A stretch of 64,000 bases of DNA, taken from positions 73,885 through 137,884 of the forward strand of contig CAVXJS010000022.1 in assembly GCA_963762145.1 (NCBI GenBank), written 5' to 3'. Below are positions 26,272-56,143 of this stretch, piece by piece. The stretch is from an uncultured Candidatus Rokubacteria bacterium. GTDB taxonomy: Bacteria; Methylomirabilota; Methylomirabilia; Rokubacteriales; CSP1-6. The position numbers were made by a program, and so were the translations under genes. The notes under the pieces are model-generated. The model searched no databases and was not told where the DNA came from. It worked only from the letters and a program-made list of their open reading frames with translations. Numbering within the stretch: the stretch's first letter is position 1; every line of letters starts with the position of its first letter.

Positions 26272-26348
26272 TGGCGCGCCTGGAGGGATTCGAACCCCCG
26301 ACCCTCGGCTTAGAAGGCCGATGCTCTATCCAACTGAGCTACAGGCGC
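26272..26348 (-). tRNA. tRNA-Arg (anticodon TCT), CCA encoded
   Basis: Manual cloverleaf: GCGCCTG TA GCTC AGTTGGATA GAGC A TCGGC CTTCTAA GCCGA GGGTC GGGGG TTCGAAT CCCTC CAGGCGC G CCA. Confidence 0.95.
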
Positions 26349-26350
26349 GT
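26310..26350. repeat. left 41-bp direct repeat (att site) of the integrative element = 5' half of tRNA-Arg
   Basis: ttagaaggccgatgctctatccaactgagctacaggcgcgt is identical to 56103-56143. Confidence 0.9.
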
Positions 26351-26357
26351 TAGGTAC

Positions 26358-27569
26358 TTACGATACACCGGGCGAGGGCGACCCGCCCGACTCGAAGTTT
26401 TCTCGAAGTTCCGTAAACCTTACGCTAGCCGGGACCAGGCGCTCTACGGCCTCTTGTAGGTGGTCCGGGGCGAGGTGGGAATACCTCTGGACCATCCCCA
26501 GAGTTCGCCACCCGCCGAGGGCCTGGATCGACCGGAGGTCGACTCCAGCCATGACTAGTCGCGACGCGAAAGTGTGCCGATTACAGTGCCACGTATAGCC
26601 ATCCAGGCGACTCGCGTCCCTTCCGGCCGCCAGTAAGGTCGCCCGCGCGCGCTCGACGGCCTTAGGGAAGAACTTATCAGGCTGCTTATGTAGGCACGCG
26701 AAGACGGGTTCCTCCGGATCGTTCGGCGTGCGCCGCATCGCCGCAAGATCGAGCAGAACAGAGCGGACTATCGAATTCATGGGAACCTGCCGAGTGTATC
26801 CAGTCTTGGACTGTCGCACGCGTATTTGTTGGACAAGAACATCTATGTCCTGCCATTCCAAGGCGAGTTGTTCGCCCCAACGAAGACCCGTGTGGACAGA
26901 AACAATGAACAGAGGTTGAAGGTCAGGGTGGAGGGCATCACGGACTATCCGTTCCTCTTCGCCCAACAGGAACTTGATCCGACCCTCAGGCTCCTTGAAC
27001 TTCCCTACGCCCGTTACAGGATTCGTAGTCGCATGACCGTGCCGGATGGCCCGGTTGAACATGGCATGCAATAACGTCCGATATCGGTTCCGGGTGGAGT
27101 GGGACCGCTCCTGGAGCAACCCGTCCAGAAAGCTATCTACGTCGCGAGGAGTGACCGCATCGAGTTTCATTCCGCCGAAAGCCTTCTTCATCAAGTCGAC
27201 ACGGCTTTCCTCGGTGCGCCATCCGCGATGGTGCAGCTTCGACCAAATGAGGTACTGCTCACCATACTCACCAAATGTCACGCGGCGGGCCTCGGTCTGG
27301 CGCTCCGCTAGTGCGCGTTCTCGTGCCCTCCGCCGCTCCTCCTTCGGGCACCAACCTGGCTCGTCATGGGCCCTCGCTCGTCGAGCGTGGTATGCGCGCA
27401 AGGCAACGCTTTTGATCGGTCCGGCCTTCTCTTGATGGATATGGCCAACCGCGCACGTATATCGAATGCCCCATTCCTCGGACGGATGACGGAACAAACC
27501 GGGAGGGGCCTGGTCCTTCTTACGGGTCGACCAACTCCGGTGACTGCGGGGCACCTCATCACCGTTCAT
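26358..27569 (-). CDS. tyrosine recombinase / phage-type integrase
   Basis: Intact 403-aa ORF. Catalytic region TGLRWGEQLAL...HCNRHTFASRLVMAGVDLRSIQALGGWRTLGMVQRYSHL (R..HxxR..Y). Its stop lies 9 nt from the tRNA 5' end. Confidence 0.9.
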   Translation of the reverse strand: MNGDEVPRSHRSWSTRKKDQAPPGLFRHPSEEWGIRYTCAVGHIHQEKAGPIKSVALRAYHARRARAHDEPGWCPKEERRRARERALAERQTEARRVTFGEYGEQYLIWSKLHHRGWRTEESRVDLMKKAFGGMKLDAVTPRDVDSFLDGLLQERSHSTRNRYRTLLHAMFNRAIRHGHATTNPVTGVGKFKEPEGRIKFLLGEEERIVRDALHPDLQPLFIVSVHTGLRWGEQLALEWQDIDVLVQQIRVRQSKTGYTRQVPMNSIVRSVLLDLAAMRRTPNDPEEPVFACLHKQPDKFFPKAVERARATLLAAGRDASRLDGYTWHCNRHTFASRLVMAGVDLRSIQALGGWRTLGMVQRYSHLAPDHLQEAVERLVPASVRFTELRENFESGGSPSPGVS

Positions 27570-27638
27570 GGTTTGCTCGTGGACCGGGGGCCGGTAGGCC
27601 TCGTGGGATCAACCATCTTCTATAGGAGCCCACACGGT

Positions 27639-28271
27639 TCATCTCGCGCTCTTTTTCAGCATTCGCCTATTTCGCATCCTTTGCGAGCACACGCTTGAGC
27701 AGTATATCTGCCGTTTACTCGCTACTAACCACGCACCGCATTCCGTACACGATCGGAGTCGTGATCCGGACACTAAGATAAGATTGAACAGGCCTCTCAC
27801 GATCGCCCCTCCCTCATCATCCTCCCAATAGAGGAGTGGTCGGCCCACAGACCGCCCCCGTTCGCGTACAAGAAAAACCCGCCCTTGCGAAGGGACAGGC
27901 AAACGCTCACCGGCAAGGTAAGTCTGAATGGCTTTCCGGAGCGTGGCATGGATCGTCCGGATCTTCTGGTCGGCTAGTGGTCCAACTGTCACTCGATAGC
28001 TCGAATCACTAGGTATCAAAACCCGGAGGCCGTAGCCGAGGGACTCCCGTTCTGCTGAACTCAATTCTTCAAGATCCAATTGAGCGAAAGCGACAGCCCA
28101 TCTAAGCTGAGCCGTCGGCCTTCCGGGCATTTCCTTCTGAGCACGGTCCATCTGGTGCCGATACTCCTGCACTTCGGACCACGATGGGCGCCTCGCGAGC
28201 CGGACGCGTGATCGGCCTAAGGCCTGCGATAGGGCTCGTCCATTCCTAGTCTTCCCGCCCATAGGCTTCAC
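27639..28271 (-). CDS. hypothetical protein with C-terminal CxxC...YCSxxCxxRxRxRR zinc-ribbon tail
   Basis: 210-aa ORF between int and the Xis-like gene. C-terminus CTECGAWLVASKRQIYCSSVCSQRMRNRRMLKKSAR (CGNR-like topology). Confidence 0.55.
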   Translation of the reverse strand: MKPMGGKTRNGRALSQALGRSRVRLARRPSWSEVQEYRHQMDRAQKEMPGRPTAQLRWAVAFAQLDLEELSSAERESLGYGLRVLIPSDSSYRVTVGPLADQKIRTIHATLRKAIQTYLAGERLPVPSQGRVFLVRERGRSVGRPLLYWEDDEGGAIVRGLFNLILVSGSRLRSCTECGAWLVASKRQIYCSSVCSQRMRNRRMLKKSAR

Positions 28272-28435: not shown

Positions 28436-28657
28436 ATGAAACAATCCATGAATCTCGAGGAAGCTGGAAAATTTATAGGGGTCTCCCCGCACACGCTCCG
28501 GGTATACGCGCGCACGGGGCGGGTGACGCACTTCAAAATCGGCCGCAGACTCGTCTTTGATCGAGCCGACCTTGAAGAATTTCTCGCCACAAAGAAAAAG
28601 CCAGCCCACATTGCGCCGGCAACGACCGCAGGACGTGGTTCGGGCCGCAAGCTCTAA
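28436..28657 (+). CDS. excisionase-family helix-turn-helix DNA-binding protein (Xis/AlpA-like)
   Basis: 73 aa. LEEAGKFIGVSPHTLRVYARTGRVTHFKIGRRLVFDRADLEEFL matches the excisionase/MerR-like HTH pattern. Confidence 0.8.
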   Translation: MKQSMNLEEAGKFIGVSPHTLRVYARTGRVTHFKIGRRLVFDRADLEEFLATKKKPAHIAPATTAGRGSGRKL

Positions 28658-28846: not shown

Positions 28847-30055
28847 ATGACTAGGGACGACCAGATCACGGTTTCAGCTACACGTTCGGCCCGAGCGTAT
28901 CTGAAGGATGGGTTCAAGGTCATCCCAGTGCCCGCGGGTAAAAAGGGCCCACGTATTAAACGATGGCAAGAACTCAACATCTCGAGGCAGGAGGTCGCCC
29001 AACATTTCAACGCTCGCAACAACATCGGGGTGCTGCTAGGCGCGAAGGCAGACTGGCTCGTCGACGTCGATCTGGACGCCGATGAGGCGGTGACAGCGGC
29101 AGAGGCTTTCTTGCCCAAGACGGGCTGGGTCCACGGTCGCCCGGGGAAGCCGAGGTCTCATCGGTTTTATAGGGCCAAAGGCGTGAAGACGAAGCGGTTC
29201 ATCGATCCGAAGGGCCAGTGCCTCGTCGAGCTCCGGAGCACGGGTTGCCAGACCCTTGTCCCGCCAAGCCTTCATCCTTCCGGGGAGCGTTACCGGTGGG
29301 ACCAGCAAGGCAAACCGAACCGCGTTCCGGCCAAAGAACTCTACCAGCGTGTCGCCCGCGTGGCCGCCTGCACGCTGATCGCGCGGAGCTGGCCGAAGCG
29401 GGGAGATCGCCACTCCTGTGCGCTGGCCCTCGCGGGCTTGCTTCTCGGGGCGGGTTGGTCGGCCAAGCAGGTCGAACATTTCCTCGCGACGGCCGCTCGG
29501 ATCGCGGGCGACGAGGAGTATAGGAAGCGGACCAGCGTTGTCCGGGATACCAAGAAAAGGCTGTCGATGGGCAAGCCCGTCACCGGACGTCGTGCGCTCG
29601 AGAAGATCCTCGGCGCTTCGGTTGTCCATCTCATCTCGGATTGGCTCGAAGCTACGCCGAATCCTGCGAAGGGCCCTCGCGACCGGAGCTCGGAAAACCG
29701 TGATTTCAACCTGACGGCCGTCCGTCTGCTCGAGCTGGATCAGCCTCAGCGTCGGATCGTTGAAGTCAAGGCCGAGATCGCAGGTGCGGTTGAGACATTC
29801 CACGTCCTCCCGGCTGTCGTGAGGGATGCCAAGAAGTTGGCCAGCGTCATAGCGGATCGCCCAGGGGAGATGCTCAACAATGATGATCCGCGACTGGTCC
29901 GACTTCGTCACCAGATTCCTAGCATTCCGCGCGTTCACGCCGTCTCACAACTCGGCTGGACGGCCACACACGACGTCTTTATGTACGGTACGCGTCCCCT
30001 GCGAACCGCCGGCTTCCATGGGGAGGCTATCTTTCTCACCGGCGAGACACGGTGA
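28847..30055 (+). CDS. bifunctional DNA primase/polymerase (Prim-Pol, AEP superfamily) domain protein
   Basis: 402 aa. The N-terminus YLKDGFKVIPVPAGKKGPRIKRWQE...NIGVLLG...VDVDLD...HRFY follows the Prim-Pol N-terminal domain pattern. Confidence 0.8.
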   Translation: MTRDDQITVSATRSARAYLKDGFKVIPVPAGKKGPRIKRWQELNISRQEVAQHFNARNNIGVLLGAKADWLVDVDLDADEAVTAAEAFLPKTGWVHGRPGKPRSHRFYRAKGVKTKRFIDPKGQCLVELRSTGCQTLVPPSLHPSGERYRWDQQGKPNRVPAKELYQRVARVAACTLIARSWPKRGDRHSCALALAGLLLGAGWSAKQVEHFLATAARIAGDEEYRKRTSVVRDTKKRLSMGKPVTGRRALEKILGASVVHLISDWLEATPNPAKGPRDRSSENRDFNLTAVRLLELDQPQRRIVEVKAEIAGAVETFHVLPAVVRDAKKLASVIADRPGEMLNNDDPRLVRLRHQIPSIPRVHAVSQLGWTATHDVFMYGTRPLRTAGFHGEAIFLTGETR

Positions 30056-31260
30056 TGTCGGCCGTACCGGATCTGGACCCGAAGGGAACACGACAAAAGC
30101 AGTATCACTACCTGCGAGAGCTATGGAAAGAACCCATGGGTCGCTTGGTGCTCGCGCTGTCGGCAGCATCGCCAGCCCTCGAGCTCGTTGGCGCCCCGAC
30201 GACCGTCTTTCACCTCGCGGGGCCGACGGGGATCGGCAAGTCCTGCTTGTTCCGGCTCGCGATTGCTGTCTACGGAAACCCGGGCGGGTCACTCCTGCGC
30301 TTCGATGTGTCGAAGGACACGCAGAACTACATGGATGCGCGACTCGGCATCGTCCGACATTTCCCCGTCCTAATTGACGAGACCACGTTGCTTGATTCTG
30401 ACGCGATCAGCAAGCTTGCCTACAATGTGGCGCTGGGCGCAGATAAGGGTCGGCTCGGCGGAACGGACAAGGGCTTTACACCCACTGATCCCAATCCCTA
30501 TCGCCTGGTGGCCCTAATGTCGGGCGAGCATTCCATCCGCGACCAAGTTGAGCATAGCGGTGCGACGGCGCGAATCGCCGAGATCGTTCTGGACAAGCCC
30601 ATCTTTGAAGTTACCGAGTTGCGTCGGTGGTATCAGCGTGCCGACTACCATCATGCTTGGATCGGCCGCGACCTCATTCAGAGCGTGATCACGAGGTACC
30701 AGGGGGACGAGACCAATCGGTGGGCTCGGCTATTCAAGCTCTACAACCGCATCCACCAGAACACCGCGAAGTGGTGTCACAATCACGGGCGGGTGATTGA
30801 TTTTCTGGCCGTGCTGCAGCTTGGATTCGTCCTAATGTATCGCCAGCTCATGATGAAGTTCCGGCCCCTCCGACACGGAGAGCTGAAGACGATCCGTGGG
30901 AAGGCGCGCACATTTGCAAGGCAGATCTATGGGCAGCTCAACCTCGTCGTTGGGGTCGATCACGTCCTGAATGAGATCCGGCAGCTTCCGAAGATCTACC
31001 GGTGGGTGAAGAAGGGTCTCGTGCCGCTCCGCATCCTCGAGCCCGTCGCCATCCGTCTAGGGATGGTTCAGCGGGGTCGGCTCACCGCGATGCTGAAGAG
31101 ACACAATATTAGTTCCGGCGTTCAGCCCCGGCAGATCCAGTTCAACAAGACAGCGGCCCGAATTTCTTGTCGCTGTGTCCTGCTGACCACGGAAGGTATG
31201 AAGCGCCTTTCGGATAGGTATGAACACAACCGAGTCTTCAGGCGGAGGAGACTAAGCTGA
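30052..31260 (+). CDS. DUF927-like P-loop NTPase (SF3-type helicase partner of Prim-Pol)
   Basis: 402 aa overlapping the Prim-Pol stop. Walker A GPTGIGKS, Walker B PVLIDETT. Position and size are typical of DUF927 helicases. Confidence 0.75.
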   Translation: MMSAVPDLDPKGTRQKQYHYLRELWKEPMGRLVLALSAASPALELVGAPTTVFHLAGPTGIGKSCLFRLAIAVYGNPGGSLLRFDVSKDTQNYMDARLGIVRHFPVLIDETTLLDSDAISKLAYNVALGADKGRLGGTDKGFTPTDPNPYRLVALMSGEHSIRDQVEHSGATARIAEIVLDKPIFEVTELRRWYQRADYHHAWIGRDLIQSVITRYQGDETNRWARLFKLYNRIHQNTAKWCHNHGRVIDFLAVLQLGFVLMYRQLMMKFRPLRHGELKTIRGKARTFARQIYGQLNLVVGVDHVLNEIRQLPKIYRWVKKGLVPLRILEPVAIRLGMVQRGRLTAMLKRHNISSGVQPRQIQFNKTAARISCRCVLLTTEGMKRLSDRYEHNRVFRRRRLS

Positions 31261-31327: not shown

Positions 31328-31450
31328 TGGGGAGAGAGGAGAGACAGTGGAGAGAGAGAGAGAGAGAAAGAGAGAGAAGAGAGAAGAGAGAGAAGAGAGA
31401 GAGAGGGAGAGAGAGAGAAGTCAGAGAGAAGGGAAGGAGACGAAACGGAA
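31328..31450 (+). repeat. polypurine (GA-rich) tract, copy 1
   Basis: About 120 nt that are almost only G/A on the plus strand (ggagagagaggagaga...gagagagagaag...). The ORFs over it (MERERERKREK...) are low-complexity artefacts. Confidence 0.9.
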
Positions 31451-31464
31451 AGATCCTAGCAGGA

Positions 31465-31575
31465 CTGATTGGGACCCTTCCACCAACGTAGTCAGCGTAG
31501 TCGGCCCGCATTTCAACATCGCGATTTGGTACCCGTTCCACCAACGTAGTTAACGTAGTTGGTTCGCGTCCCAAC
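31465..31575. repeat. two tandem ~54-bp iteron-like units (putative replication origin of the element)
   Basis: Unit pattern ctgattgggtacccttccaccaACGTAGTcaACGTAGTcgg..cgcgtcccaac at 31465-31516 and 31522-31575. Each contains a tandem 9-mer (C/T)A(A/G)CGTAGT. Confidence 0.65.
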
Positions 31576-32044
31576 ACTACATGAATCAGCTATGCCTGTC
31601 TGCGCCTCGCCGATTCTTATAGCCGATCCGCGCCTCGCGACGGCGAGAAGGGGGCTCGAGGAGGGCTGGAGCACCCCTAGGACCAACGATCCATTCGGCC
31701 CTCCTAGTCTCGCCTCTCCCCGTGATCTGACCCTTGGTTTACAGGCGGTTTCGCCCCTTAGGGGAGCGTTGAGCCTTACTTCGTGAAGTGAACGTCAGGT
31801 TCCGCTCACTGTTTGGAGGATAGACAAATGCGCCTCAAGAGACCGACCTCGTTATTTTGCCTTGCACCTCGGGAAAGGAGGGACGCCGAACAAAGTGGCC
31901 AGAGAAACGTCTTCGTGACTTCCTCGGTCCTCAGGCTGCCAAAATACTTCGTGCTGGTCGGAAGGACGCGTTTAACCATCCCAAGACTCGCTTTTCCCAA
32001 AGACGCCCAAGTACCCGAAGACACCGCGTAGGGCGCTACTAGAC

Positions 32045-32491: not shown

Positions 32492-32807
32492 ACCGTCTTC
32501 TACTCTTTTCCGGCTCGGAGTTCGAGGCTCGTGGGTGTTGCCCGCTGCAAGGGCTAGGATCGACCCAGCGATTCCTACTTGCCTGGCTTGACACGATTCG
32601 CAGGCTGATGGACGATCCGGCAGGGCAGGTTTCTGGGGGTCAAAAAGTGGTGAATTCGGGTATTCCGCTGCTATTGCAAATCCGCTAGGCGGGCTAGTAT
32701 GTCGGCTATACCCCCTCACATTCGAGTAGCGTTCGTCTGAATTGCTCTGGCTTAGCCAGTTTAGTTCCTCAAGCTGGGAGACATCCGCGATCAAAGCCAC
32801 CGGATTC

Positions 32808-32912
32808 TTGAAGAGACACGGTCTTAGCTCCGGTGTTCAACCCCGCCAGATCCGTTTTAAGAAGACGGCGGCCCGAATTTCCAGTCGCTGTGTGAACCGC
32901 CTTTCGGGTTGA
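32808..32912 (+). pseudogene. 3' remnant of a second, diverged DUF927-type helicase gene
   Basis: Translates to LKRHGLSSGVQPRQIRFKKTAARISSRCVNRLSG*, parallel to LKRHNISSGVQPRQIQFNKTAARISCRCV at the end of 30052..31260. Confidence 0.6.
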
Positions 32913-33008
32913 TAGCAGCCCGTGTCCTCGCCTTCAGACGAGTGACTACCCTGACTACGCTCCCGGAGTCGGTACCCTCGAGCGTGAGCATACAAACACA
33001 CACTCAAA

Positions 33009-33060
33009 ACCAGAGAGAGAGAACGAGAGAGAGAAAGAAGAAGGACGGAGAAGGAAGGGA
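33009..33060 (+). repeat. polypurine (GA-rich) tract, copy 2
   Basis: aaaaccagagagagagaacgagagagagaaagaagaaggacggagaaggaaggga. Same relative position as copy 1. Confidence 0.8.
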
Positions 33061-33080
33061 CACATCATAATAGCGGCTAG

Positions 33081-33134
33081 CTGATTGGGTACCCTTCCGC
33101 CAACGTAGTCAACGTAGTCGGCTCGCGTCCCAAC
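33081..33134. repeat. third iteron-like ~54-bp unit
   Basis: ctgattgggtacccttccgccaacgtagtcaacgtagtcggctcgcgtcccaac. Confidence 0.65.
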
Positions 33135-33235
33135 CCGACATGGCGCCGTCAGCTTGCTTGCAGGTGAACTCGAATGTGGGAGAAAAGTCCGTGGTTCTAC
33201 CCCTTCTGCTCCTAGGAGATGTCCGTTAGAAGGCT

Positions 33236-33850
33236 ATGGAGTCGGCTATGCCCGTCCGCACCTCGCCGATTCTTACAGCCGAACCTGACTTCGACGAGCT
33301 CGACAAGGTCTACCTTTGGGGGTTACAGGTCTTTGGAGACCGCCCCGGGCCACACATGGCGGCCTTCCTAGGTTTTGGCGCCGATGGTGATCAAGAGGGA
33401 TGGGAGACGTTTCTCGCAACAGCAGAAAGGATCTTCAACGAATACGGCGACCTCCCATTTGTGCACTGGAGTCAATATGAGCGGGTACGTCTCGACGTCT
33501 ATCTTGAACGGTTTGGAGATCGGCGCGGCATAGGGGGCCGAGTTCGGGCGAATCTGTGTGATCTCCTCCGCGTAACCCAGAATGCCGTGGCTCTTCCGCT
33601 CCCGAGTTACAGCCTCAAGGTGGTGGAGAAGCACGTCGGCTTCGAACGGAAACTCGTGGACACTGGCGGGGCGTGGGCCATCGCGAAGTACATCGAGGCA
33701 GTGGAGACTGAAGACATTGCGCAGCGTGCTGCTCTCATCGACGAGGTTCGCGCATACAACGAAGAGGACCTAGCGGCCACATGGGCAGTTCTTCGGTGGC
33801 TCAAGAGGAAGACCGCGGCCCAGCAATTCCGCTCGTATTACGTGCCTTAA
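33236..33850 (+). CDS. RNase H-like / PolB-exonuclease-like domain protein (RNase_H_2-type, as in C-termini of RecB-family TM0106-like nucleases)
   Basis: 204 aa. PDFDELDKVYLWG...FVHWSQYERVRL...PSYSLKVVEKHVGF...YNEEDLAATWAVLRWL motif order. Confidence 0.65.
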   Translation: MESAMPVRTSPILTAEPDFDELDKVYLWGLQVFGDRPGPHMAAFLGFGADGDQEGWETFLATAERIFNEYGDLPFVHWSQYERVRLDVYLERFGDRRGIGGRVRANLCDLLRVTQNAVALPLPSYSLKVVEKHVGFERKLVDTGGAWAIAKYIEAVETEDIAQRAALIDEVRAYNEEDLAATWAVLRWLKRKTAAQQFRSYYVP

Positions 33851-36475: not shown

Positions 36476-36625
36476 ATGCCCGAGCTCCTCGCCGCCCTCG
36501 ACGCCTTCATGCAGGAGCACCGCCGTTGCGGCATGCTGGACGGCGGGGTGGACGGTTCAGTGGTGTGGAGGAGCTGCGAATGCGGGGCACGGATCGCTCA
36601 CTCAATCGCGGAGGGAGCCGGATGA
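36476..36625 (+). CDS. hypothetical 49-aa Cys-containing protein
   Basis: ATG 36476 to TGA 36623-36625. MPELLAALDAFMQEHRRCGMLDGGVDGSVVWRSCECGARIAHSIAEGAG. Below the ORF-track cutoff and read manually. Confidence 0.3.
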   Translation: MPELLAALDAFMQEHRRCGMLDGGVDGSVVWRSCECGARIAHSIAEGAG

Positions 36626-36708
36626 CCCGACGCTGGCCGTGCATCCTGATCGTCTGCTGCCGCGTCGAGGAGCGAGGCTGGTTGCCTTAGGCCCGTTGAC
36701 AGACGCAG

Positions 36709-37143
36709 TTGCCCTGTGGTGCAGTGGCACGGCGTGTGAGTCCCGCGAAACCATCAGCTCCTCGAGACCCGGCTAGACCCGTTCGAGTCGTCATCGCAGA
36801 TGACGATGTCGAAGTCCGCACACTGGTCGACTTCATCCTCCGGCAAGACCCGACGGTTCTTCTGGTTGGGGAGGCAGAGGATGGAGAGTCAGCCATCATC
36901 CTCGTTCGCCAAGCGCAGCCGGATCTCGTCCTGATGGACGTGATGATGCCCGGCGTCGGGGGGCTCGAAGCGACACGGCGGATCAAACGGGAGTGGCCCG
37001 AGACGAGGGTTCTAGTCCTGACTAACCTGACCGATGATGACACGCGCCGCTCGGCGTTCCTGAACGGCGCCGACTCATTCATCACCAAGCGCGACATCGC
37101 GACCCGGTTGCTCGTCGCGATCAAGGACACGATTCAGGCCTAG
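36709..37143 (+). CDS. single-domain response regulator (CheY-like receiver)
   Basis: VRVVIADDDVEVR...DLVLMDVMMPGVGGLEATRRIK...VLVLTN receiver motifs. The true start may be downstream of 36709 (TTG). Confidence 0.85.
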   Translation: MPCGAVARRVSPAKPSAPRDPARPVRVVIADDDVEVRTLVDFILRQDPTVLLVGEAEDGESAIILVRQAQPDLVLMDVMMPGVGGLEATRRIKREWPETRVLVLTNLTDDDTRRSAFLNGADSFITKRDIATRLLVAIKDTIQA

Positions 37144-37161
37144 CCATCTACTCCCTGTTGG

Positions 37162-37401
37162 CTACGACTCGGGCAGCGCCTGCTTCAAGACCCTCCAGAG
37201 CCCGTCGCAGGCGACGTGGAAGCGGAGTGTGTGCCCGTCCGACATCGCCTCCTCGTGTTCCGGCTCGCTCGACGTGATGGGCGCGTCGCATCCGTCGCAT
37301 GTCAGACCGGTGCCGTAGCCGCCCCACGTCTTGACAGAATCGGCGGTCGGAAGGATGCCCCGCCACAGCTTGTCGGTGATCCGCCGAGAGGCCTCGTCCA
37401 T
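37162..37401 (-). CDS. hypothetical small Cys-rich protein
   Basis: 79-aa ORF containing LTCDGCDAPI...FHVACDGLW. No family recognised. Confidence 0.4.
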   Translation of the reverse strand: MDEASRRITDKLWRGILPTADSVKTWGGYGTGLTCDGCDAPITSSEPEHEEAMSDGHTLRFHVACDGLWRVLKQALPES

Positions 37402-37509
37402 GGGGTACGGGACTGTACCATACGGGACAGTCCCGCAGTTGGTCTTCGCGTTAGGCTCCTACTTATGATCAGGAATTAGTCCCTCCGGAAGCTGCGAGAG
37501 TCCGCAGGA

Positions 37510-37668
37510 ATGACCCAGGCCGAGATGGCTGAACTGCTTCGAGTGCCGTTGCTCACGCTTACGAAGTGGGAAGCGGGCTCGCTCGACCAGAAGGCTAAGG
37601 CGCTGCACGGGCTACTCGCTGCTCGGGCCGAGAAGACGAACTCGCGACGCGGTAGTGCACGCCCTTAG
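37510..37668 (+). CDS. short XRE-like helix-turn-helix protein (possibly N-terminally truncated)
   Basis: MTQAEMAELLRVPLLTLTKWEAGSLDQKAK.... The in-frame upstream RKLRESAG is preceded by a TAG. Confidence 0.35.
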   Translation: MTQAEMAELLRVPLLTLTKWEAGSLDQKAKALHGLLAARAEKTNSRRGSARP

Positions 37669-37982
37669 GCCAGCCCCCGCTCTTGGGGCTTGGGCGGCTT
37701 TATCGCGTCAACAGCTCGGCGGAGCTTCTCCGAAACAATCTCGGGCGGGCGCACCTCGAGGAACGCTTCGAGTTCGGCCGGGGTGAACTCGACCGACGCC
37801 GTAGCCCCACGACACGAAAGCTTCATCGTCCACGGCTCGCCAGGCGTCGGGAGCTCGAGGCGCCCGTCGAACCAGAGTGGCGAGCCGCGGTCGAGCACCA
37901 TCCCGTGCTCGGCCAGAATGCGGCCTAATCGCTCGGTGACCCGCATCTGTGCATCCAGCACCCCGCGCTGAGTGTAGTCCAA
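37665..37982 (-). CDS. hypothetical protein
   Basis: 105-aa ORF convergent with the HTH ORF. No family recognised. Confidence 0.35.
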   Translation of the reverse strand: MDYTQRGVLDAQMRVTERLGRILAEHGMVLDRGSPLWFDGRLELPTPGEPWTMKLSCRGATASVEFTPAELEAFLEVRPPEIVSEKLRRAVDAIKPPKPQERGLA

Positions 37983-38054
37983 TTTTCTACCTCGCCCGGA
38001 GCGGCAGTTTGTTGATCGGGGTGCGTCAGCAGTAGACCCCCAGTGTGGGCGGGA

Positions 38055-38360
38055 TCAGGGGTAACATTCACCGACAGCCGGCACGCCCGGCAAATCGCCC
38101 GAGGGGGAGGGACCAACAAGCGGTCCCCCCTCGGGTTCCTGCCTGCTTGGTGCCTCAGTCTGCTTGGAGTTCAAGATCTTCCTCAACGTGTTGATTGCCT
38201 GCTGGAGCTCCACCTTCGACCAGCTCGAGAGCGCTTCCCTCGCCTGCTCGATTGAGCAAGTACACAATTTCACCGTAATCCTGCCGCACCGAATGCAGGG
38301 CATGATCTCCTCCTTACTAAGTCGAGATCGAAGCGCCGACATGTGAAGAGCAACCGACAT
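38055..38360 (-). CDS. hypothetical protein
   Basis: 101-aa ORF with a possible internal start at MPCIRCGRITVKLC. No family recognised. Confidence 0.3.
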   Translation of the reverse strand: MSVALHMSALRSRLSKEEIMPCIRCGRITVKLCTCSIEQAREALSSWSKVELQQAINTLRKILNSKQTEAPSRQEPEGGPLVGPSPSGDLPGVPAVGECYP

Positions 38361-38637
38361 GCCACGGAATTAGGCTAGATATTTCGAACTCTTGGCTGGA
38401 GGCTTCAGAGGATTGGCTGGCGGCTCAGAACCTTTGACCGAGTGATGATGCGGCATTTCTACCCGGTACCGCAACAAGACGGCCCAAGCTCGACACGCTC
38501 TTGACCTATCTCGTGCGGAGCGGGCCGGATCGTGGGCCAGCGGTCAACAACTCACGCTGAGCTCGGGCCCGAACAAGCCGTAGCCCCGGGCGGGGCCTCG
38601 TCGATCTTTACTAGTTTTTTACTCGACGGGGACTACC

Positions 38638-38874
38638 TTGGCCCGCATGGCACACCGCTGGCGGCTGACCAAGTCGAGCAGCACGACGGACCGCTGGTGG
38701 GTGACATGCAGTTGTGGCCGGTGGCGCGGCTACACCGAGACTGACGTACAAGCGCAACTACTCGCGGCGGAACATGGGCGCGAGAAGGGCACCCACGTTG
38801 TCAAGATCGAGAGCCGCGACGACTACCGCCGCCGAGCGCAGGCCGCCCGACTGCAACATCCGCGCTCAATCTAG
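38638..38874 (+). CDS. hypothetical protein
   Basis: 78-aa ORF (…WWVTCSCGRWRGYTETDVQAQLLAAEHG…). No family recognised. Confidence 0.3.
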   Translation: MARMAHRWRLTKSSSTTDRWWVTCSCGRWRGYTETDVQAQLLAAEHGREKGTHVVKIESRDDYRRRAQAARLQHPRSI

Positions 38875-39329
38875 CGCGTCGCCGAGCGCGTGTCTCACTA
38901 CGTCGTTGGCGGTGTCGGTAATGCGCGCCGAGGCAGGCTCCATGCGGTCAGAACCCTAGCTCATCGACGACGGTTGGAGCGTCCTCGTCTATCCACGCCT
39001 CACCTAGAGCGTGAATCGACTTGCCGAGCATTGACATGAGCAGGGCTTCCACTTGGTCAATGGTCGGGGGCGGGTCCACTCGTCAAGCCACTCTGTGTAG
39101 TCGCGTTCAACCCCAAGCGGTCTCCCAAGCGACGCACGCCGACCAGCACTCCGCTGTTGCGGGCTTTCGGCGGTAAGCCACTCGGCGGCCAGATTCTCCC
39201 CTGTTGAAGGCTTCCCCGTTTGACGTCTCGGAGTCGTAACATTGTCGTAATGTATCGGGGCTGACGATCTGACTTCAATATTTTTATTGGCATTCCCGAT
39301 AGGAGGCTCGACACCGGCTGGTCGAACGT

Positions 39330-40653: not shown

Positions 40654-40857
40654 ACGCGGGCGAGGTGTTCGACCTTCGCCCGAAGGGGAGGAGCCGCCCT
40701 GTTGAGGGTGCCGCTTCGCGTATCCCATTTGCCGGGTCACGGACATATGACTTTTATCTCGTCATGGCTTTGCAATGCACCGAGGAGCCGGCTCTGGTAG
40801 GATACCTCCCCACGGCCGCCTGAGGAGAGGCAGCGCGGCCAGCGCGGAGGAACTCCC

Positions 40858-41460
40858 ATGCGGCTGATCTTGATTGGGCTGTGTGCTGCGTTCTCGACTG
40901 CCGTGGCGGTGATAGGGCTCCAGCCCGGCACCATCGCCTTGCGGAACGCCCCCGAGGAATTCATGGCCATGCCCTGGGGCGCCAGCGAGTCCGAAGTCCG
41001 CGCGACACTCGCGGACACGGTGCAGGTCGCGGGTGCCCATGGGCCGAGACTCGGCGACTGCCAGGACTACCCCGCCTCGGATCGTGGCCTCTACGGCGAC
41101 CGCTTTTGCGTCGGCGGCGCTGCCCTCGGCGGCACCAAGATCGAAACCACGTATTCCTTCCGTCGCGGTGGGTTGGCGTCGCTACGGATGATCTTCAACT
41201 CCGATTCCTTTGATCGGATCGAAAACATCTTCATCGAGCGGTACGGACCGCCAGTGTCTGCCTTCAATGAGGAGGTCGAGCTATCAACCAAGATCAATCG
41301 CTTTCTCCTATGGGAAAGCGAACACATCAAGATCGTGCTACGGCGCTATTTGAAGAGCAGCACCCGGGGGGCCGCGACCTACACGACGGCAGGCGAACAG
41401 GCCGAGGTGATGCGCCTCGTTCACGACCTGGCCCGGCGGGATGCCGGGAAACGCCCTTAG
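40858..41460 (+). CDS. hypothetical secreted protein
   Basis: 200-aa ORF with an N-terminal hydrophobic signal (MRLILIGLCAAFSTAVAVIG). No family recognised. Confidence 0.5.
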   Translation: MRLILIGLCAAFSTAVAVIGLQPGTIALRNAPEEFMAMPWGASESEVRATLADTVQVAGAHGPRLGDCQDYPASDRGLYGDRFCVGGAALGGTKIETTYSFRRGGLASLRMIFNSDSFDRIENIFIERYGPPVSAFNEEVELSTKINRFLLWESEHIKIVLRRYLKSSTRGAATYTTAGEQAEVMRLVHDLARRDAGKRP

Positions 41461-41723
41461 CGCGGCTGCCGGTCTCTGCTTGACCACGCGCCTGATCTCC
41501 CCAACTCAGAGTCTGCCGCTTCGGGATCACGGTCGGTGGGTGCATGCACGGCTAGCCTAGCCTCAACTTCCGCCATCCGCTTCTCTACGAATCTGCCAGA
41601 GAAGCCTCTCCCGGCGTTGCCTGTTCTCTTGAGACGTGGCGGCAAATTCAGACCGGACGGGCGACATCTACACGTGTCTAGGGTCGTCTGCCGTATGCGA
41701 CCTGCTCCCCGACTCTCCTCCAG

Positions 41724-42540
41724 TCAGGAGGTGAGCATTGGGCTCGGTGCCCGGTCACGAGTGCACTGCTCGAACTCCGTTGGGGGCACGTTGCCGAGGG
41801 AACTGTGGGGCCGGACGGCATTGTAGTCCACACGCCAGGCCTCGACGATCTGGCGCGCGTGAGCCAGGCTAAGGAACCAGTGCTCGTTCAGGCACTCGTC
41901 GCGGAATCGACCATTGAAACTCTCGACGTAGGCATTCTGATTCGGCTTGCCCGGTTCGATGAAGTGCAGCCGGATGCCGCGGGTGTAGGCCCACGCGTCG
42001 AGCGCCCGGCCGGCGAATTCGGGACCATTGTCCGTGATCAACACCGCCGGGTTCCCGCGCGTTTCGACGAGCCGCTGCAGGACCTCGACGACCCGGCGCC
42101 CGCCGATCGAGGTGTCCACTTCGATGGCCAAGCAGGCCCGGGTGAAGTCATCGACGACGGCCAGGAGCCGGACGCGGCGACCGTCTTCCAGGGTGTCCAG
42201 CAAGAAGTCGAGCGACCAGCGCTCGTTGATCCGGGCCGGCGCGGCGAGCGGTGTCCCGCGGGGGACACGGCGCCGGCGTCGGCGGCGCCGCACCACGAGC
42301 CCCTCGTCTCGATACAGGCGGTAGACCCGCTTGATTCACGCGGTAGCCCTCTCGACGGAGGAGGACATAGAGCCGGCGATAGCCGAAGCGGCGCCGCTCG
42401 GCGGCCAGGCCGCGCAGCCGGTCACGCAGCGCCGGCCAGTCGGCGCGCCGCCCCTGGTAGCGGCACGTAGACCGGTCCATGCCCACCAGGCCGCAGGCCC
42501 GGCGCTCACTCAATCCGAAGCTCGCCTGCATCGCCCGCAC
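41724..42540 (-). pseudogene. IS3-family transposase OrfB (DDE/rve integrase core) with an extra, non-programmed frameshift
   Basis: The N-terminal part is in ORF 42148..42540 (…[20 protein letters not shown]). The DDE core is in ORF 41724..42296 (…WSLDFLLD…ITDNGPEF…[21 protein letters not shown]). The switch lies near 42300-42330. Confidence 0.85.
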
Positions 42541-42563
42541 CGCGATCCGCTGCGCCGCGGGCG

Positions 42564-42830
42564 TCAGGCCTTTTTTCCGACCAACTCCTTCAACGCTTGG
42601 TTATCCAGCGTGAGATCCGCGACCAAACGCTTCAGCCGGCCATTCTCGTGCTCGAGCTGCCGCAGCCGCCGGGCCTCATTGACCTCGAGGCCGCCGTACT
42701 TGGCTTTCCACCGGTAGAACGTCTGCTCGCTGATGCCGTGCCGGCGACAGAGGTCGGTCGTCTTGCCGCCCGCCTCGGCCTCTTTCAGGATCCCGATGAT
42801 CTGCTCTTCCGTGAACCGCTTCCGACGCAT
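42564..42830 (-). CDS. IS3-family transposase OrfA (HTH)
   Basis: 88 aa. MRRKRFTEEQIIGILKEAEAGGKTTDLCRRHGISEQTFYRWKAKYGGLEVNEARRLRQLEHEN. Confidence 0.9.
   Translation of the reverse strand: MRRKRFTEEQIIGILKEAEAGGKTTDLCRRHGISEQTFYRWKAKYGGLEVNEARRLRQLEHENGRLKRLVADLTLDNQALKELVGKKA
42570..42576 (-). other. A-AAA-AAG programmed -1 ribosomal frameshift heptamer of the IS3 element
   Basis: The reverse complement of cttttttc (42570-42577) reads GAAAAAAG, immediately before the orfA stop codon (42564-42566). Confidence 0.7.
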
Positions 42831-43452
42831 CGCGGGGCCTCCCCGCGGGCATCCTAAGCCGAATCCTCACCCACCTCGTGGCGGAGTTTTCGGGGAGCAG
42901 GTCGTATGGACTCTCGAATGCGATGGCAGTCCTATTCCTTGGACGATACACGGGCTTCGGTGACGCGGGAAAACGGGCCTGAAGCCGGCGGGCGACTCCG
43001 CGTCGCTGTGTCGTCTCGATTAGCATAGTTGACGCGCCGGGCTACCGCAGCCTTGAAGTCTCGGGAAGACAGTACCAGAGTCCTGGTTGTTGCTACCGCG
43101 CCACCGTGGCCTTTACGGCACCAGCATGGCGGCGGCTGGGCTCGCAATCCGCTGGCGACGAAGGCGGGGACAACCTTAGAAGAGCCCGAAGGGGCAGCCT
43201 CAAGAGGGCGGCTCCTCCCCTTCGGGCGTGGCGCCGGGCGTGCCCGTAGACACCCGGTGCCCCTCAGCGTAAGCTCCGCCGCGTGGCGCGTCATCGGCTC
43301 ACGCGACAACTGCGCCCGCCCTCATTGGGCGAGAGAAGGGAAGTCTTGGGGGTTGTTAGTGTAATAACCGCCGGCCCGAGTAGGCACGGCCACTCCTATC
43401 GGGCCCTTCTACACCATTTGGTGCGGTCCGCCACTGGCCCTCGTTTTGCTAG

Positions 43453-44136: not shown

Positions 44137-44439
44137 TGATCCACCCGCAGCAGGAGCGACGGCAGGATCGTCAGGCCGAGCGTCTCGAGGTTGATGACCA
44201 GGTTGAACTTCGTTGGTTTGCTCGCCCGGCAGATCGGCAGGTTTGGCTCAGTTGAGGATCTTGTCCACGTGGGTTGCCCCCCGGCGGTATGACTCGGCCG
44301 CACTCGACCTGTAGGTCATCAGCCCCCACAGGTCAAGGAACTCGTTCGTGAAGTACACCGCAGGGCGTCGGGCTTCATTCCGCAAACTGGCTACGGCTGC
44401 TGCAGCGGTGAGCGTCTGGATCAGGTCCCGTGTGGGCAT
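44137..44439 (-). pseudogene. C-terminal remnant of an ABC_sub_bind-type substrate-binding protein
   Basis: …YRRGATHVDKILN* then, in a different frame, KPTKFNLVINLETLGLTILPSLLLRVDQVIE. It has an internal deletion and has lost the family stop codon. Confidence 0.6.
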
Positions 44440-48917: not shown

Positions 48918-49238
48918 TGATCTGGGGCGAATGGACCCATCCGATCGCGCTTGTCCTGCTCGGTGCAGTTCTTCTGGTGGTCGGCCTTATCTCTCGGGAT
49001 AGGTCGTGAGGGCCGCTCGCGGCCGGCGAGGTTGATGACCAACTCGAACTTCGTCGGCCGCTTGAGCAGCCGGATGTACCGATTCCGGAGCGTATCGGTC
49101 TGCCGTCTGAGCGTGTCCACCTGCTGGGAAAAAATCTCGTACTTGCCGGCATCCTGATCGGCGAGTTGCTCGCTGAACCACTGCAGGGCCCCTAGCTGGG
49201 CCTGCAGCCCCTGACGGTACTCCTGATGGAATCGATCC

Positions 49239-49628: not shown

Positions 49629-49670
49629 CGCTATGACCTCAGTCTGCCGGCAAGATGGATGGCGCTCTTC

Positions 49671-51210: not shown

Positions 51211-52166
51211 TACTCGATCACCTGATCCGCCCGCTGCAGGAGCGACGGCGGGATCGTGAGACCGAGGGCCTTCGAGGCCTTGAGGTTGATCACCACCTCG
51301 AACTTGGTGGGCTGCTCGACCGGGAGGTCTGCAGGTGTCGCACCTCGGAGGATCTTGTCGATCTGCGCGGCTACCCTTGGCACGTTCTGCAGTGGCGTCG
51401 GCCCGTGGGAAAGCAACCCACCCGACTCGGCGAATCGTCGGTCGTAGCCGATCGCAGGCAGGCGGCTCTTCGCGGCCACTGCCCCAATGTGTTCCAGGTG
51501 AGCCCGGAACCACACCACGTTGGGCACAAGGACGGCCTCGGCACGGGCACGCTTGGCCGCTGCGAAGAACCGGCCAAAGTCTTCCGGCCCCCGTACTGAG
51601 ATGCCTTGTATCTCAATACCAAACGCTTGGGCGGCGGCGGTCAATCTCTGCCGTCTCGCACCGACATCGGGTGCGGGAGCCGGATAGACTACGCGCGCCA
51701 CCTCGGGCAACGCTTCTTTGAGGATCTCTAACAGTTTCTCGTCATAGACGCCGAGCGCGAAGCCCGTCAGGTTCCCCCCTGGACGCGAATAGCTGGTCAC
51801 GAATCCGCTTTCGATCGGATCGGAGGCGAGGCTAAATACGATGGGAATCGTCCTGGTCGCCTCCTTGGCGGCGTTAGTCGCAGGCGTTCCTGCCGTTAAC
51901 ATGAGGTCAACCTTGAGCCGCACAAGTTCGGCCGCGAGAGTCGGGAGCTGATCTCGTCGCTCGGCATTGCGGCGCTCGACCTTGAGGTTCTGGCCCTCGA
52001 CCCATCCAAGCTCCTGCATCGCGTCCACGAAGGGCTTGGACCCGGGGTCCTGGCCTTCTCGGAGCGCACCGATTCGGTAGACCTTTCCCGCCGGCTGCCC
52101 CTCGGCGGCGAACGGCGCGGCCAAGAGGCCGACGATAGCGCGGGCGATGAAGGTCCTCCGATCCAT
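51210..52166 (-). CDS. ABC_sub_bind-type periplasmic substrate-binding protein
   Basis: 318 aa from [30 protein letters not shown] (start 52166, GGAGGGA RBS) to ...[18 protein letters not shown]. Its stop overlaps the next start by 1 nt. Confidence 0.9.
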   Translation of the reverse strand: [318 protein letters not shown]

Positions 52167-52525
52167 ATCTCCCTCCTTCACGTGCACAGACGCTGGCGGG
52201 CGTAGGCCCAGATCTTGGCCGCACACCACTGCGCCATTCCGCACATTCGAGCAGCGCGACGACCTGCGCGTCTCGGCGCTGCGGGCGCTCGAGCACCCGC
52301 GGCCGGGCTCCGCGCTCGACGACACCGAGCCGAACAGGCCGTCTGCCAGCCTGCAGCTGTACGGCAGACCGCACCGCCGCGAAGAGGCTACCACAGGCGT
52401 GCGCACGCCCTCCGGCGAGACCGGGGCTCCGAGTGAGGCTCTCAGCATGAGGCCACGAAGGAAATCGCGGCGCCCAGGAACATCTTGCGGAGCATCCGCC
52501 GGACCCGTCTTCCGGGAGACCTTCC

Positions 52526-54405: not shown

Positions 54406-55575
54406 CTGTCCTGAGCCGGATTAGTGTTGACACTTGTGACCAGAAACAGTGAGGGCCATCTGGCCTATCGTTCCCAGAGTGAACCACCCCCTGCCAGGGG
54501 AACCACTTTGGGAGGATCGACCGATGACCCTCGAGGAGAAAGTACACGGACTGCGGCTGCATGTCATCCAGCGGGCGGAGGAGTTGGGCAATGTCAGTCG
54601 GGCCTGCCGGGAGGCGGGGATCTCCCGCGCCCTGTTCTACCGCTGGCGTCAGCGGTTGGAGCGCTACGGCCAGGACGGGGTGCATCCGCGGCGGCATCGG
54701 GCCCGCCCCGGCCGACCGGTGCAGCTGGCCCCGGAGACGGAGCGGCTGCTGCTGAGCGTGGCGGTCAGCGCGGCGACGTGGGGCGCGAGTCGGATCGCCG
54801 CTTACCTGCGCCATCGCTGGCAGCTGCGCGTGGCACCCAGCACGGTGCAGCGTGCCCTGCGGCGGGCCGGGCTGGCGACCCGCCGGCAGCGGCTGACCGT
54901 GCTCGAGCACCGCGCCCTGCAGACGGCGGGGTTGCTGACCGAGCGGACGCGCAGCACCCTGTGGCAGGCGCAGCACGGCCAGCCGCGTCACGTCGCCGCC
55001 CGCGAGCCCGGCGAGCTGGTGTGCGTGGACACCTTCTACATTGGGCAGCTCAAAGGCGTGGGCAAGGTCTGGCAGATCACGGCCTGCGACGCCGCGTGCT
55101 CCTACGGCGTCGCGTGGTTGCTGCCAGCCCACAACGCCGAGGCGGCCGCTCACTTCGTGCGTCGCATCTTGGTGCCCCTGTATCGCCGGGCGGGCTGGCG
55201 GCTGCGCCGCCTGCTCACCGACGGCGGCCCCGAGTTCAAGGGGGCGTTCGATGACGCCTGCCGGACGCTCGGCCTCCGCCACACCCGAACGAAGCCGCGG
55301 CACGCGTGGACGAACGGGTTCGTCGAGCGGCTGCAAGGCACGATCTTGCAGGAGCATTGGCGCGTGGCCTTCCGTCGGCGCTACTTCACGAGTCGAACGG
55401 CGCTCCAACGAAGCCTCGATGGGTTCATGCAGTCCTACAATCACGAGCGGCCCCATCAAGGCTACCGGGTCCGTGGCCGCACCCCCGCCGCGCTCTTCTG
55501 GGGCGCCGCTCGGGCCTGACCGCATGTCGCACTCTGGGGTGGCCAAGGTGTCTACACCATTCCGGGTCTGGACAG
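54406..55575 (+). mobile_element. IS481-family insertion sequence with 6-bp target-site duplication CCTAGA
   Basis: About 40-bp imperfect terminal inverted repeats (ctgtcctgagccggattagtgttgacac... and ...gtgtctacaccattccgggtctggacag). Identical CCTAGA at 54400-54405 and 55576-55581. Confidence 0.85.
54524..55519 (+). CDS. IS481-family DDE transposase (HTH + rve integrase core)
   Basis: 331 aa from MTLEEKVHGLRLHVIQRAEELGNVSRACREAGISRALFYRWRQR (GGAGGA RBS). DDE core …VCVDTF…LLTDGGPEF…WTNGFVERLQGT…. Confidence 0.9.
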   Translation: MTLEEKVHGLRLHVIQRAEELGNVSRACREAGISRALFYRWRQRLERYGQDGVHPRRHRARPGRPVQLAPETERLLLSVAVSAATWGASRIAAYLRHRWQLRVAPSTVQRALRRAGLATRRQRLTVLEHRALQTAGLLTERTRSTLWQAQHGQPRHVAAREPGELVCVDTFYIGQLKGVGKVWQITACDAACSYGVAWLLPAHNAEAAAHFVRRILVPLYRRAGWRLRRLLTDGGPEFKGAFDDACRTLGLRHTRTKPRHAWTNGFVERLQGTILQEHWRVAFRRRYFTSRTALQRSLDGFMQSYNHERPHQGYRVRGRTPAALFWGAARA

Positions 55576-55586
55576 CCTAGACCCTT

Positions 55587-55604
55587 CCTAGGATCGATCC
55601 TAGG
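55587..55604. repeat. perfect 18-bp palindrome cctaggatcgatcctagg
   Basis: Read directly from the sequence. It lies 6 nt right of the IS481 target duplication in a CTAG-rich stretch. Confidence 0.9.
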
Positions 55605-56102
55605 AGTGCCCCCAACGATCTAGTTCGGTAAGCTGGTCCGGCGGACCCCCCTTTGGGAACTCTGAGTCCAAGTCCGGACCAAGTTCGGGGGCTCACTCGG
55701 GCACGTTCAGAGTCACATCCGCTCAACTCGGTGAGGGAGCCTAGGATACGACTCCTCGCTTTTCGCGCGGGAATCGTGAGCGGGAGCGAGCGCGAGTGAC
55801 CTAGCTCGATATGGAGCGGGACCGATTTCGAGTCGGACCCCGACGCGCTCACCTTCCCGCAGTCCACTACAAGGCTTGAGCCTAGACCTTAGCGATGGCC
55901 GACACCGCCGCGCGGCCTGGGAGCGTAAAGCAAGAGCCCCCGAGGTCGAAGAATTCTCGAAGTACGGAGACTCGCTCAAGGTCTCTCCCAATCGGTCCCG
56001 CCGATCCCTTCGAGAGCGGACCCGATCGGAACCCTCGGGAATACTTAGCTAGAGTGAGATAGAGAAGGCCCGAGAGATCTAGGGCGAAGGGCCCCGATCG
56101 CT

Positions 56103-56143
56103 TTAGAAGGCCGATGCTCTATCCAACTGAGCTACAGGCGCGT
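56103..56143 (-). repeat. right 41-bp direct repeat (att site) = orphan 5' half of tRNA-Arg(TCT)
   Basis: Identical to 26310-26350. Sequence to its left does not complete a cloverleaf. Confidence 0.9.

Follow-up and report, generated by a model that had tools for sequence, protein, structure and literature searches.

What becomes of a tRNA gene when an integrating element supplies its 5' half instead of the usual 3' half? The question is raised by an island of 29.8 kb in the tRNA-Arg(TCT) gene of an uncultured Candidatus Rokubacteria bacterium (contig CAVXJS010000022.1), of which a stretch of 64 kb, hereafter the window, was analysed; all inference here is drawn from assembled contigs and sequence comparison. 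We are highly confident of the overall model of integration that we propose. A tyrosine-integrase element would have entered the one tRNA-Arg(TCT) gene through a crossover within CTTCTAA, a 7-bp segment of the anticodon loop. Its attachment site (attP) would have carried the 5' half and loop of a tRNA right after the stop codon of the integrase gene (int), so that on integration the native promoter stayed with an orphan 5' half at the opposite end (56103-56143), while a functional gene was rebuilt beside int (26272-26348) from the 5' half of the element and the 3' half of the chromosome. The rebuilt tRNA would most likely be transcribed from a short element promoter between, or overlapping, the int stop codon and position +1, the alternative being read-through from int. 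The interval between the repeats would have grown by accretion, and would comprise a recent, intact core of about 5.3 kb, a truncated older relative, two insertion sequence (IS) elements and cargo.

The direct repeat and the tRNA gene

Directly visible in the contig is a perfect direct repeat of 41 bp. A search of the window found exactly two copies with 0 mismatches, spaced 29,793 bp apart, and no third copy at up to 3 mismatches; by chance none is expected (none in 100 shuffles). The only tRNA gene in the window contains one of the copies:

26272..26348, minus strand: complete tRNA-Arg(TCT) (ARAGORN; Rfam, 74.6 bits; comparison with the empty site)
26310..26350: left copy of the 41-bp repeat, the int-proximal attachment junction (tRNA positions -2 to 39)
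56103..56143: right copy, consisting of an orphan 5' half and the anticodon loop, with the native upstream flank still next to it

On the minus strand the repeat ends at tRNA position 39, the final base of the anticodon loop CTTCTAA, and identity stops at the boundary between the loop and the 3' stem. The 3' half of the tRNA (26272-26309) is unique within the window, and scoring with the tRNA model found no complete tRNA at 56103-56143 (15.3 bits, against a gathering score of 29). A sequence-only reading of the window had described a perfect 41-bp repeat in two copies, its extent from 2 nt before the tRNA 5' end through the anticodon loop, and an orphan 5' half that lacks a 3' half; on all three counts it was right. 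We infer that the 3' half of the complete tRNA is chromosomal and that its 5' half plus anticodon loop (26310-26348) is the copy brought by the element.

The locus has the features by which Islander defines a tRNA island: a tyrosine integrase gene lies between the full tDNA and a cognate fragment; this is an end fragment, co-oriented with the tDNA, with the 5' fragment upstream; the length falls within 2-200 kb; and in a sister strain (L174) that lacks the island the tDNA is single and unbroken. Identity stops at a 7-nt loop between dyad-symmetric stems, which corresponds to the anticodon-loop sublocation (Williams 2002), and the attachment (att) cores read TCGGC-CTTCTAA-GCCGA and TCGGC-CTTCTAA-AGCGA. 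As in islands with a 5' fragment, the 5' portion appears to be supplied by the element and the native promoter stays with the orphan.

Two further traces of tRNA sequence were noted. At 56065-56141 (minus strand) the orphan half and the adjoining P' arm of the attachment site are faintly tRNA-like (15.3 bits), with a partial anticodon stem and an acceptor complement, and the fold is more stable than that of shuffled sequences (z = -3.0). The likeness may go back to an ancestral attP that held a whole tRNA, or be due to chance. On the other side, just past the TPR gene of the left flank, a 24-nt copy of the T arm and 3' acceptor end of the tRNA (26274-26297) occurs with 1 mismatch at 25235-25258. 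The TPR gene, with a GC content at third codon positions (GC3) of 0.86 against about 0.95 in the core, is thus bracketed by the tRNA and a 3' fragment. The same fragment is found in the related loci L085, L086 and L088 and falls inside the block contiguous with L174; the bracketing looks like the scar of an ancient canonical islet of the T-loop type.

The empty site and the flanks

Relatives of this locus were located via the TPR gene and then via the bestrophin gene, which flank the island:

25308..26252, minus strand: TPR gene, left flank, 20 nt beyond the tRNA 3' end
56193..57200, minus strand: bestrophin-family gene, conserved chromosomal right flank

If the island had been inserted as proposed, an empty site should show the sequence left of 26310 running straight into 56103-56143, with one tRNA across the join, as the sequence-only reading had pointed out. 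Exactly this join is seen in L174 (ENA ERZ25039586, contig_2616), a sister strain with flanks 94-98% identical to those of the window. Positions 1-6354 of L174 align to window 62443-56092 at 94.1%, and positions 6300-16250 to window 26350-16389 at 98.3%. Its one tRNA-Arg(TCT) (6302-6378) has the bestrophin stop codon on one side and the TPR start codon on the other; bestrophin, tRNA and TPR gene are contiguous, the 41-bp segment occurs once, and the 29.8 kb are missing. The unequal divergence of the left and right flanks from L174 is a side observation that hints at recombination around the hotspot.

The bestrophin flank abuts the 5' end of the complete tRNA in L174 and in a further sister strain, L085, and abuts the orphan in the window. 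The native promoter is accordingly to be sought to the right of 56143, where it had been placed from the sequence. Since the native upstream region is conserved in L174 and L085 as well as before the orphan, the rebuilt tRNA beside int is severed from its native promoter. Orthologs of bestrophin at 75% identity or more number in the thousands, and together with the flank gene order of L174 they identify the right flank as chromosomal. The idea that this flank is a further island, raised by its lower GC3, was rejected because bestrophin is widely conserved and the order of the flank genes in L174 is identical.

Other searches with the flanks yielded less. The TPR protein matched only distant TPR proteins in species-representative genomes, and exact-protein look-ups of flank genes returned only Logan contigs of ~1 kb that end in or before the repeat. 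L087, with a TPR protein 54% identical, shows no synteny with the window, and L173 is too short. Also in the left flank, a rhodanese-ThiF (MoeB-like) gene at 23538-24761 is split into open reading frames (ORFs) of 307 aa and 92 aa; the split recurs in L085, L086 and L174, which makes it a real feature of the lineage and not an assembly error.

The integrase and the arms of the attachment site

The gene that reads into the tRNA and the sequences around the crossover point comprise the following parts:

26358..27569, minus strand: tyrosine integrase, 403 aa, reading into the tRNA 5' end (PF00589, 5.9e-24)
26391..26410, minus strand: pair of AACTTCGAG direct repeats in the P arm, candidate arm-type Int-binding sites
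55945..55963, minus strand: P'-arm pair ACTTCGAG-aat-TCTTCGAC, at 139-160 nt from the loop, matching the P-arm repeats
56098..56102, minus strand: imperfect copy (AGCGA vs GCCGA) of the 3' strand of the anticodon stem, candidate core-type half-site in the P' arm (repeat family D9)

The integrase has the complete catalytic set (R230, K255, H328, R331, W354 and Y363, from invariant alignment columns and direct reading), in the R-K-H-R-(H/W)-Y pattern of tyrosine recombinases. Its stop codon lies 9 nt from tRNA +1, so the intact tRNA does follow a tyrosine integrase as closely as had been claimed. Phage and plasmid databases contained no close relative, the best matches being at most 32% identical and confined to the catalytic domain. 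The two AACTTCGAG repeats of the P arm have an 11-nt spacing, and the repeated 8-mer has only one further occurrence in the window. L168, a relative that carries a related integrase, has its own repeat pair in P and P' arms, at positions and distances as in the window. Both arms of the window would hold arm-type sites; the matching repeats and the imperfect copy of the 3' stem suggest that the right end is cognate for an integrase of this type and not a random scar.

Polarity among related integrases

Is the reversed polarity an accident of this locus? With an alignment of integrase homologs, 80 metagenomic loci were retrieved and all were set with int on the plus strand; none is syntenic with the flanks of the window. 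A complete co-oriented tRNA lies -10 to +94 nt past the int stop codon in 53 of the 80, a clade-wide arrangement that can be read directly from the contigs, and the tRNAs concerned are Arg-TCT, Arg-CCT, Ser, Leu, Lys, Asn, Met and His. Convergent tRNAs are found at 7-11 of the 80 loci. In a neighbour-joining tree of the integrases polarity tracks the tree, and the window is placed among the co-oriented Arg-TCT loci. Viral contigs were mostly free genomes; where an adjacent tRNA was present, it was co-oriented in nine cases out of ten.

Two relatives show the geometry of the window at both ends. In L027 positions 1-40 of a tRNA-Leu-CAA are repeated 6.1 kb upstream, beyond int, delimiting a 6.1-kb element. 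L168 has an integrase 62% identical, the same tRNA and the same 9-nt gap, and a 40-nt repeat (tRNA positions 0-39) lies 10.7 kb upstream with one mismatch, a difference which indicates that the native and the element-borne copies differ in origin. That the element supplies the 5' half, as the sequence-only reading had it, is hence borne out by the empty site of L174 and by the same geometry in L168 and L027. The opposite polarity is seen in L171/L172, where a prophage with a 57%-identical integrase adjoins a convergent tRNA-Arg-ACG and is bounded by a 46-nt repeat running from the loop to the 3' end. In L027, L168, L171 and L085 alike the crossover lies in the anticodon loop. Both polarities thus coexist among close relatives of the integrase. 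The 5'-half polarity is an inherited trait of the integrase clade and not an accident of one locus; 5'-half targeting can, in other words, be a heritable property of an integrase lineage.

Crossover in the loop in both polarities agrees with established knowledge: the anticodon stem provides symmetric core sites, and the asymmetric 7-bp overlap alone sets the direction. There is also a wider idea, one that we find nearly an even matter but stop just short of favouring: a large clade of integrases from uncultured soil bacteria would normally target 5' halves, across at least 8 tRNA identities, each element carrying a compact extended -10 promoter that takes over the host tRNA, and polarity would have flipped repeatedly among integrases at least 57% identical, through inversion of the 7-bp overlap relative to int with the symmetric core sites of the anticodon stem unchanged. 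If this were true, repeated flips would explain why sister strains use one tRNA in both polarities, and a catalogued oddity would become a tractable natural system for the evolution of att-site directionality and of target-gene rescue.

Some related loci deserve mention in their own right. The tRNA-Arg(TCT) of L168 is occupied on both sides (547-586, 11279-11355, 17523-17541 and 18253-18301), with the 10.7-kb reverse-polarity element upstream and, 6-7 kb downstream, two fragments reaching from loop to 3' end, one of 49 nt (at 90%) and another of 19 nt. In the Arg-CCT relatives L033, L043, L044 and L066 the stop codon of int is situated 10 nt into the tRNA, so that the att core overlaps the int coding sequence. 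In L026 (3298-7485) int reads into tRNA-Lys(CTT), on the opposite side of which lies a 4.1-kb islet bounded by a 43-nt repeat of the 3' half; it encodes a C5 cytosine methyltransferase and an EcoO109I-like endonuclease and no integrase, and may be a restriction-modification islet mobilised in trans.

Alleles of sister strains at the same tRNA

In L085 (ERZ25039591), whose flanks are about 96.5% identical, it is the complete tRNA that adjoins bestrophin. The C-terminal remnant of a convergent integrase lies 16 nt past the CCA end and is followed by a 6.7-kb island and an orphan on the TPR side, which consists of the loop CTTCTAA and the 3' half (45 nt) and starts at the first loop base. This island (3175-9981) has the canonical polarity and a decayed convergent integrase, whose remnant is closest to the integrases of the convergent clade. 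Sister strains thus use one tRNA and one 7-bp crossover segment in both polarities. The gene offers an unusually complete natural experiment, being empty in L174, occupied in reverse polarity in the window and in canonical polarity in L085, with the same 7-bp crossover.

One block is the only part common to the islands of the window and of L085, at 95-98% identity and in the same order and orientation:

36476..39328: shared block, including a response regulator at 36709-37143; also in the canonical island of L085

Attempts to convert the window state into that of L085, or the reverse, by integrase-mediated steps alone were given up, as every path that could be constructed loses this block, which may be shared cargo of mosaic elements. 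In L086 (360-1747) the last ~140 codons of an integrase of this family are fused to an unrelated GAF-domain ORF and still stand next to the tRNA and TPR. Of this dead int, the ~430 nt nearest to the tRNA are retained at 92% identity to the window, as would fit selection acting on signals for tRNA expression. In L088 the sequence upstream is different again, and repeat and block are laid out in a similar way.

Expression of the rebuilt tRNA

Another question regards the promoter of a tRNA gene that is cut off from its native upstream region. Two candidates were recognised:

26349..26369, minus strand: conserved block GGTGTATCGTAAGTACCTAAC, directly 5' of tRNA +1, spanning the int stop codon and containing the -10-like TG-TATCGT; candidate element-borne tRNA promoter
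56150..56178, minus strand: candidate native tRNA promoter TTGCGT-N17-CAGAAT, 8 nt before +1 of the orphan and now reading into the element; conserved in L085 and L174, not called by a strict scan

A 21-nt block, GGTGTATCGTAAGTACCTGAC, stands directly before tRNA +1 in 6 of the 7 Arg-TCT loci, next to int coding sequence that is divergent. The int stop codon falls inside the block, except in L014, where the block follows the stop at 67 nt. The corresponding place in other clades is taken by TGATAGAAT, TGATAATAT, TGTTACAAT or TATAAT, and motifs near the consensus TGnTAnnAT or TATAAT are present in L006, L068, L049, L023 and L070. Among 51 non-redundant loci, 21 contain TG+TAnnnT at -40 to -5, against 3.6 +/- 1.7 in shuffles (500 shuffles, maximum 9) and 2 of 306 control windows internal to int. 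The AT content upstream of the tRNAs is 0.58 vs 0.38. A terminator scan at both tRNA copies gave one weak site (55937-55952), within chance.

From this conservation it seems probable that the element brings its own extended -10-type promoter for the tRNA. The suggestion of the sequence-only reading that the rebuilt tRNA is expressed from within or through int gains indirect support from the conserved non-coding block and the enriched extended -10-like motif. The candidate promoter would have to sustain a tRNA that is probably single-copy.

Contents of the interval

Inside the interval GC drops from about 0.70 to 0.56-0.68, and both GC and GC3 lie below those of the left flank. Apart from int and the att arms, it contains:

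27639..28271, minus strand: ORF of 210 aa (orf210), upstream of int, without Pfam match, part of the conserved core
28436..28657, plus strand: HTH_17 protein (AlpA/Xis-like), 73 aa, candidate excisionase or regulator (Pfam, 1e-10; same module in ERR11630401)
28847..30055, plus strand: Prim-Pol primase/polymerase
30052..31260, plus strand: DUF927 helicase-like protein
31335..31629: (AG)n tract and 58-nt iteron-like tandem repeats (CAACGTAGT-type), candidate replication origin (families D4, D6, D11)
32793..33850, plus strand: remnant of a second, related element: C-terminal piece of DUF927 (73.5% identity), iteron region in a further copy (80-85%), gene for RNase_H_2 (33236-33850)
40677..43228: IS element with 42-bp inverted repeats and an rve transposase at 41724-42296 (pair I9)
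54449..55519, plus strand: second IS transposase (HTH and rve), 0.6 kb from the right end

Everything that had been listed from the sequence is present, namely int, HTH_17, Prim-Pol, DUF927, two rve transposases and the drops in GC. The view of the 29.8 kb as one integrative element did not survive: the interval is a composite, partly decayed array with a second element remnant, IS elements and decayed cargo. Its core, with int, orf210, HTH_17, Prim-Pol, DUF927 and the iterons, extends from 26358 to about 31629 (~5.3 kb) and is intact; an identical core module is found on a 5-kb contig of another sample (ERR11630401), which breaks inside the repeat. At 32793-33285, 1.7 kb from the first copy, DUF927 3' end, iteron region and RNase_H_2 start recur in diverged form. 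On sequence grounds, the simplest reading would be two related elements in a tandem array, the older one truncated.

The second (AG)n/58-nt repeat copy, at 32996-33142, is diverged and has the same iteron-like look. Diverged copies and fragments of ABC_sub_bind (PF04392) lie in both orientations at 34979-36471, 44126-44275, 49028-49070 and 50245-52448 (families D1-D3, pairs I1-I12), which suggests repeated duplication and decay of one cargo gene. The right part of the interval holds ABC_sub_bind fragments, IS elements, regulators and the P' arm.

Alternative explanations

Could the arrangement be a product of assembly, in which an empty-site chromosome and a free circle with attP were threaded together through the shared 41 bp? 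The same graph nodes would be expected either way, short Logan contigs of other samples break in or near the repeat, and an empty-site strain is present in a sister sample. A 41-bp repeat is, however, shorter than normal reads and final k-mers, so that assemblers resolve it, while L168 and L027, contigs of other projects, show the integrated geometry independently and L086 independently joins the int 3' end, the tRNA and the TPR gene. We regard such an artefact as very improbable; the attP would carry the 5' half in that case too, and the conclusion on polarity would be unaffected. Even less credence is due to the orphan 5' half being the scar of a deletion or rearrangement, for instance IS-mediated, of a once-canonical arrangement. 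There is indeed an IS 0.6 kb from the orphan, and L085 has a canonical island at this tRNA, but a scar of this kind does not fit repeat identity that stops exactly at the loop boundary, arm-type repeats that match at the expected P'-arm distance, the identical geometry of L168 and L027, or junctions with L174 that are exactly those of a site-specific insertion. It is also unlikely, if less decidedly so, that the 29.8 kb is a single intact element which moves as one unit with all its cargo. Identical outer repeats, matching arm sites at both ends and the lack of the whole interval in L174 would agree with one unit; the second, diverged DUF927 3' end, iterons and RNase_H start at a distance of only 1.7 kb from the first, the presence of two IS elements and of many ABC_sub_bind fragments, the size of the relatives with both ends visible (only 6-11 kb) and the core module found by itself on a contig in another sample argue against it.

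Integration as modelled above could also be combined with a different mode of tRNA expression: the rebuilt tRNA may be co-transcribed with int (or orf210-int) and released by RNase P, as is reported of the pTN3-like elements of archaea, the conserved block being an Int/Xis/IHF-type site. In favour of this are a gap of no more than 9 nt, which in the Arg-CCT relatives becomes negative, and a strict scan that gave no consensus promoter. The extended -10-like motif is, on the other hand, strongly enriched exactly here, where AT content is raised; five loci (L006, L068, L049, L023 and L070) come near the consensus; L086 keeps the tRNA beside a truncated int with a replaced upstream region; and the block of L014, 67 nt past the stop, is independent of coding sequence. 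Co-transcription is thus the less likely mode, although a good deal more plausible than the three alternatives above, and we prefer an element-borne promoter.

Several points tell against the proposed integration and promoter, and should be kept in view. As the two repeat copies of the window are identical, the window alone cannot tell which of them arrived with the element. The shared block is common to the opposite-polarity island of L085, and no simple integrase-mediated pathway accounts for it. Two IS elements and many gene fragments make the present mobility of the whole 29.8 kb uncertain. As regards the promoter, a scan for the strict sigma-70 consensus, which may not be that of the host, found none upstream of either tRNA copy; the 21-nt conserved block could be a binding site for a recombination protein instead; and the loci in the enrichment test are related, so that the counts are not independent.

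Comparison with known systems

Integration at the 5' side of tRNA genes is documented as infrequent, according to work that cites Zhao & Williams (2002) and archaeal cases. In the Islander survey 159 islands have a 5' fragment vs 3760 with a 3' fragment, of 3919 (about 4%). The sequence-only reading had treated the arrangement as exceptional, which overstates its rarity: it makes up about 4% of Islander islands, was described in 2002 and is found in most of the 80 metagenomic relatives of the integrase. As described in the Islander work and in work that cites Zhao & Williams (2002), the 5'-fragment islands agree with the window in being tyrosine-integrase tRNA islands with the 5' fragment displaced upstream and the regenerated gene off its native promoter. 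Added here are an empty site, an allele of opposite polarity and a promoter-like motif across the clade.

The pTN3-like integrases of archaea (Cossu 2017; Krupovic & Bamford 2008) provide a functional analogy. According to a review (PMC8371274), their attB is the tRNA 5' half, and an intact tRNA is restored beside int and expressed from the integrase promoter; the same review rates 5'-half targeting as 'seldomly encountered in bacteria'. The window would resemble them in the 5'-half attB and the intact tRNA beside int. They are archaeal plasmids and viruses relying on an integrase promoter, whereas the window holds a bacterial element of a family with a separate -10-like motif. The canonical anticodon-loop class (Williams 2002; here L171/L172 and L085) shares the 7-bp loop crossover, the symmetric stem and an int 3' end abutting the att core, and its representatives among our loci have integrases up to 57% identical to that of the window. 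In that class the repeat comprises the loop and everything 3' of it, and int converges on a tRNA that retains its native promoter, whereas the repeat of the window comprises the 5' end up to and including the loop. Mx8 and SSV, cited in the Islander paper for an attP that overlaps int, are alike in having the att core at or inside the int 3' end; the int of the window stops 9 nt before the tRNA and is unaltered by recombination.

These comparisons have practical consequences. Island finders and annotators built around 3' fragments, or around an integrase that lies downstream of the tRNA, will set boundaries such as these in the wrong place, and integrase/att pairs of this type carry a built-in candidate promoter beside the insertion site. 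The island of the window is a new, well-supported case of a known minority class, to which the predominance of 5' polarity at the level of a clade, its flips between closely related integrases and a promoter-like element that is conserved may add something new.

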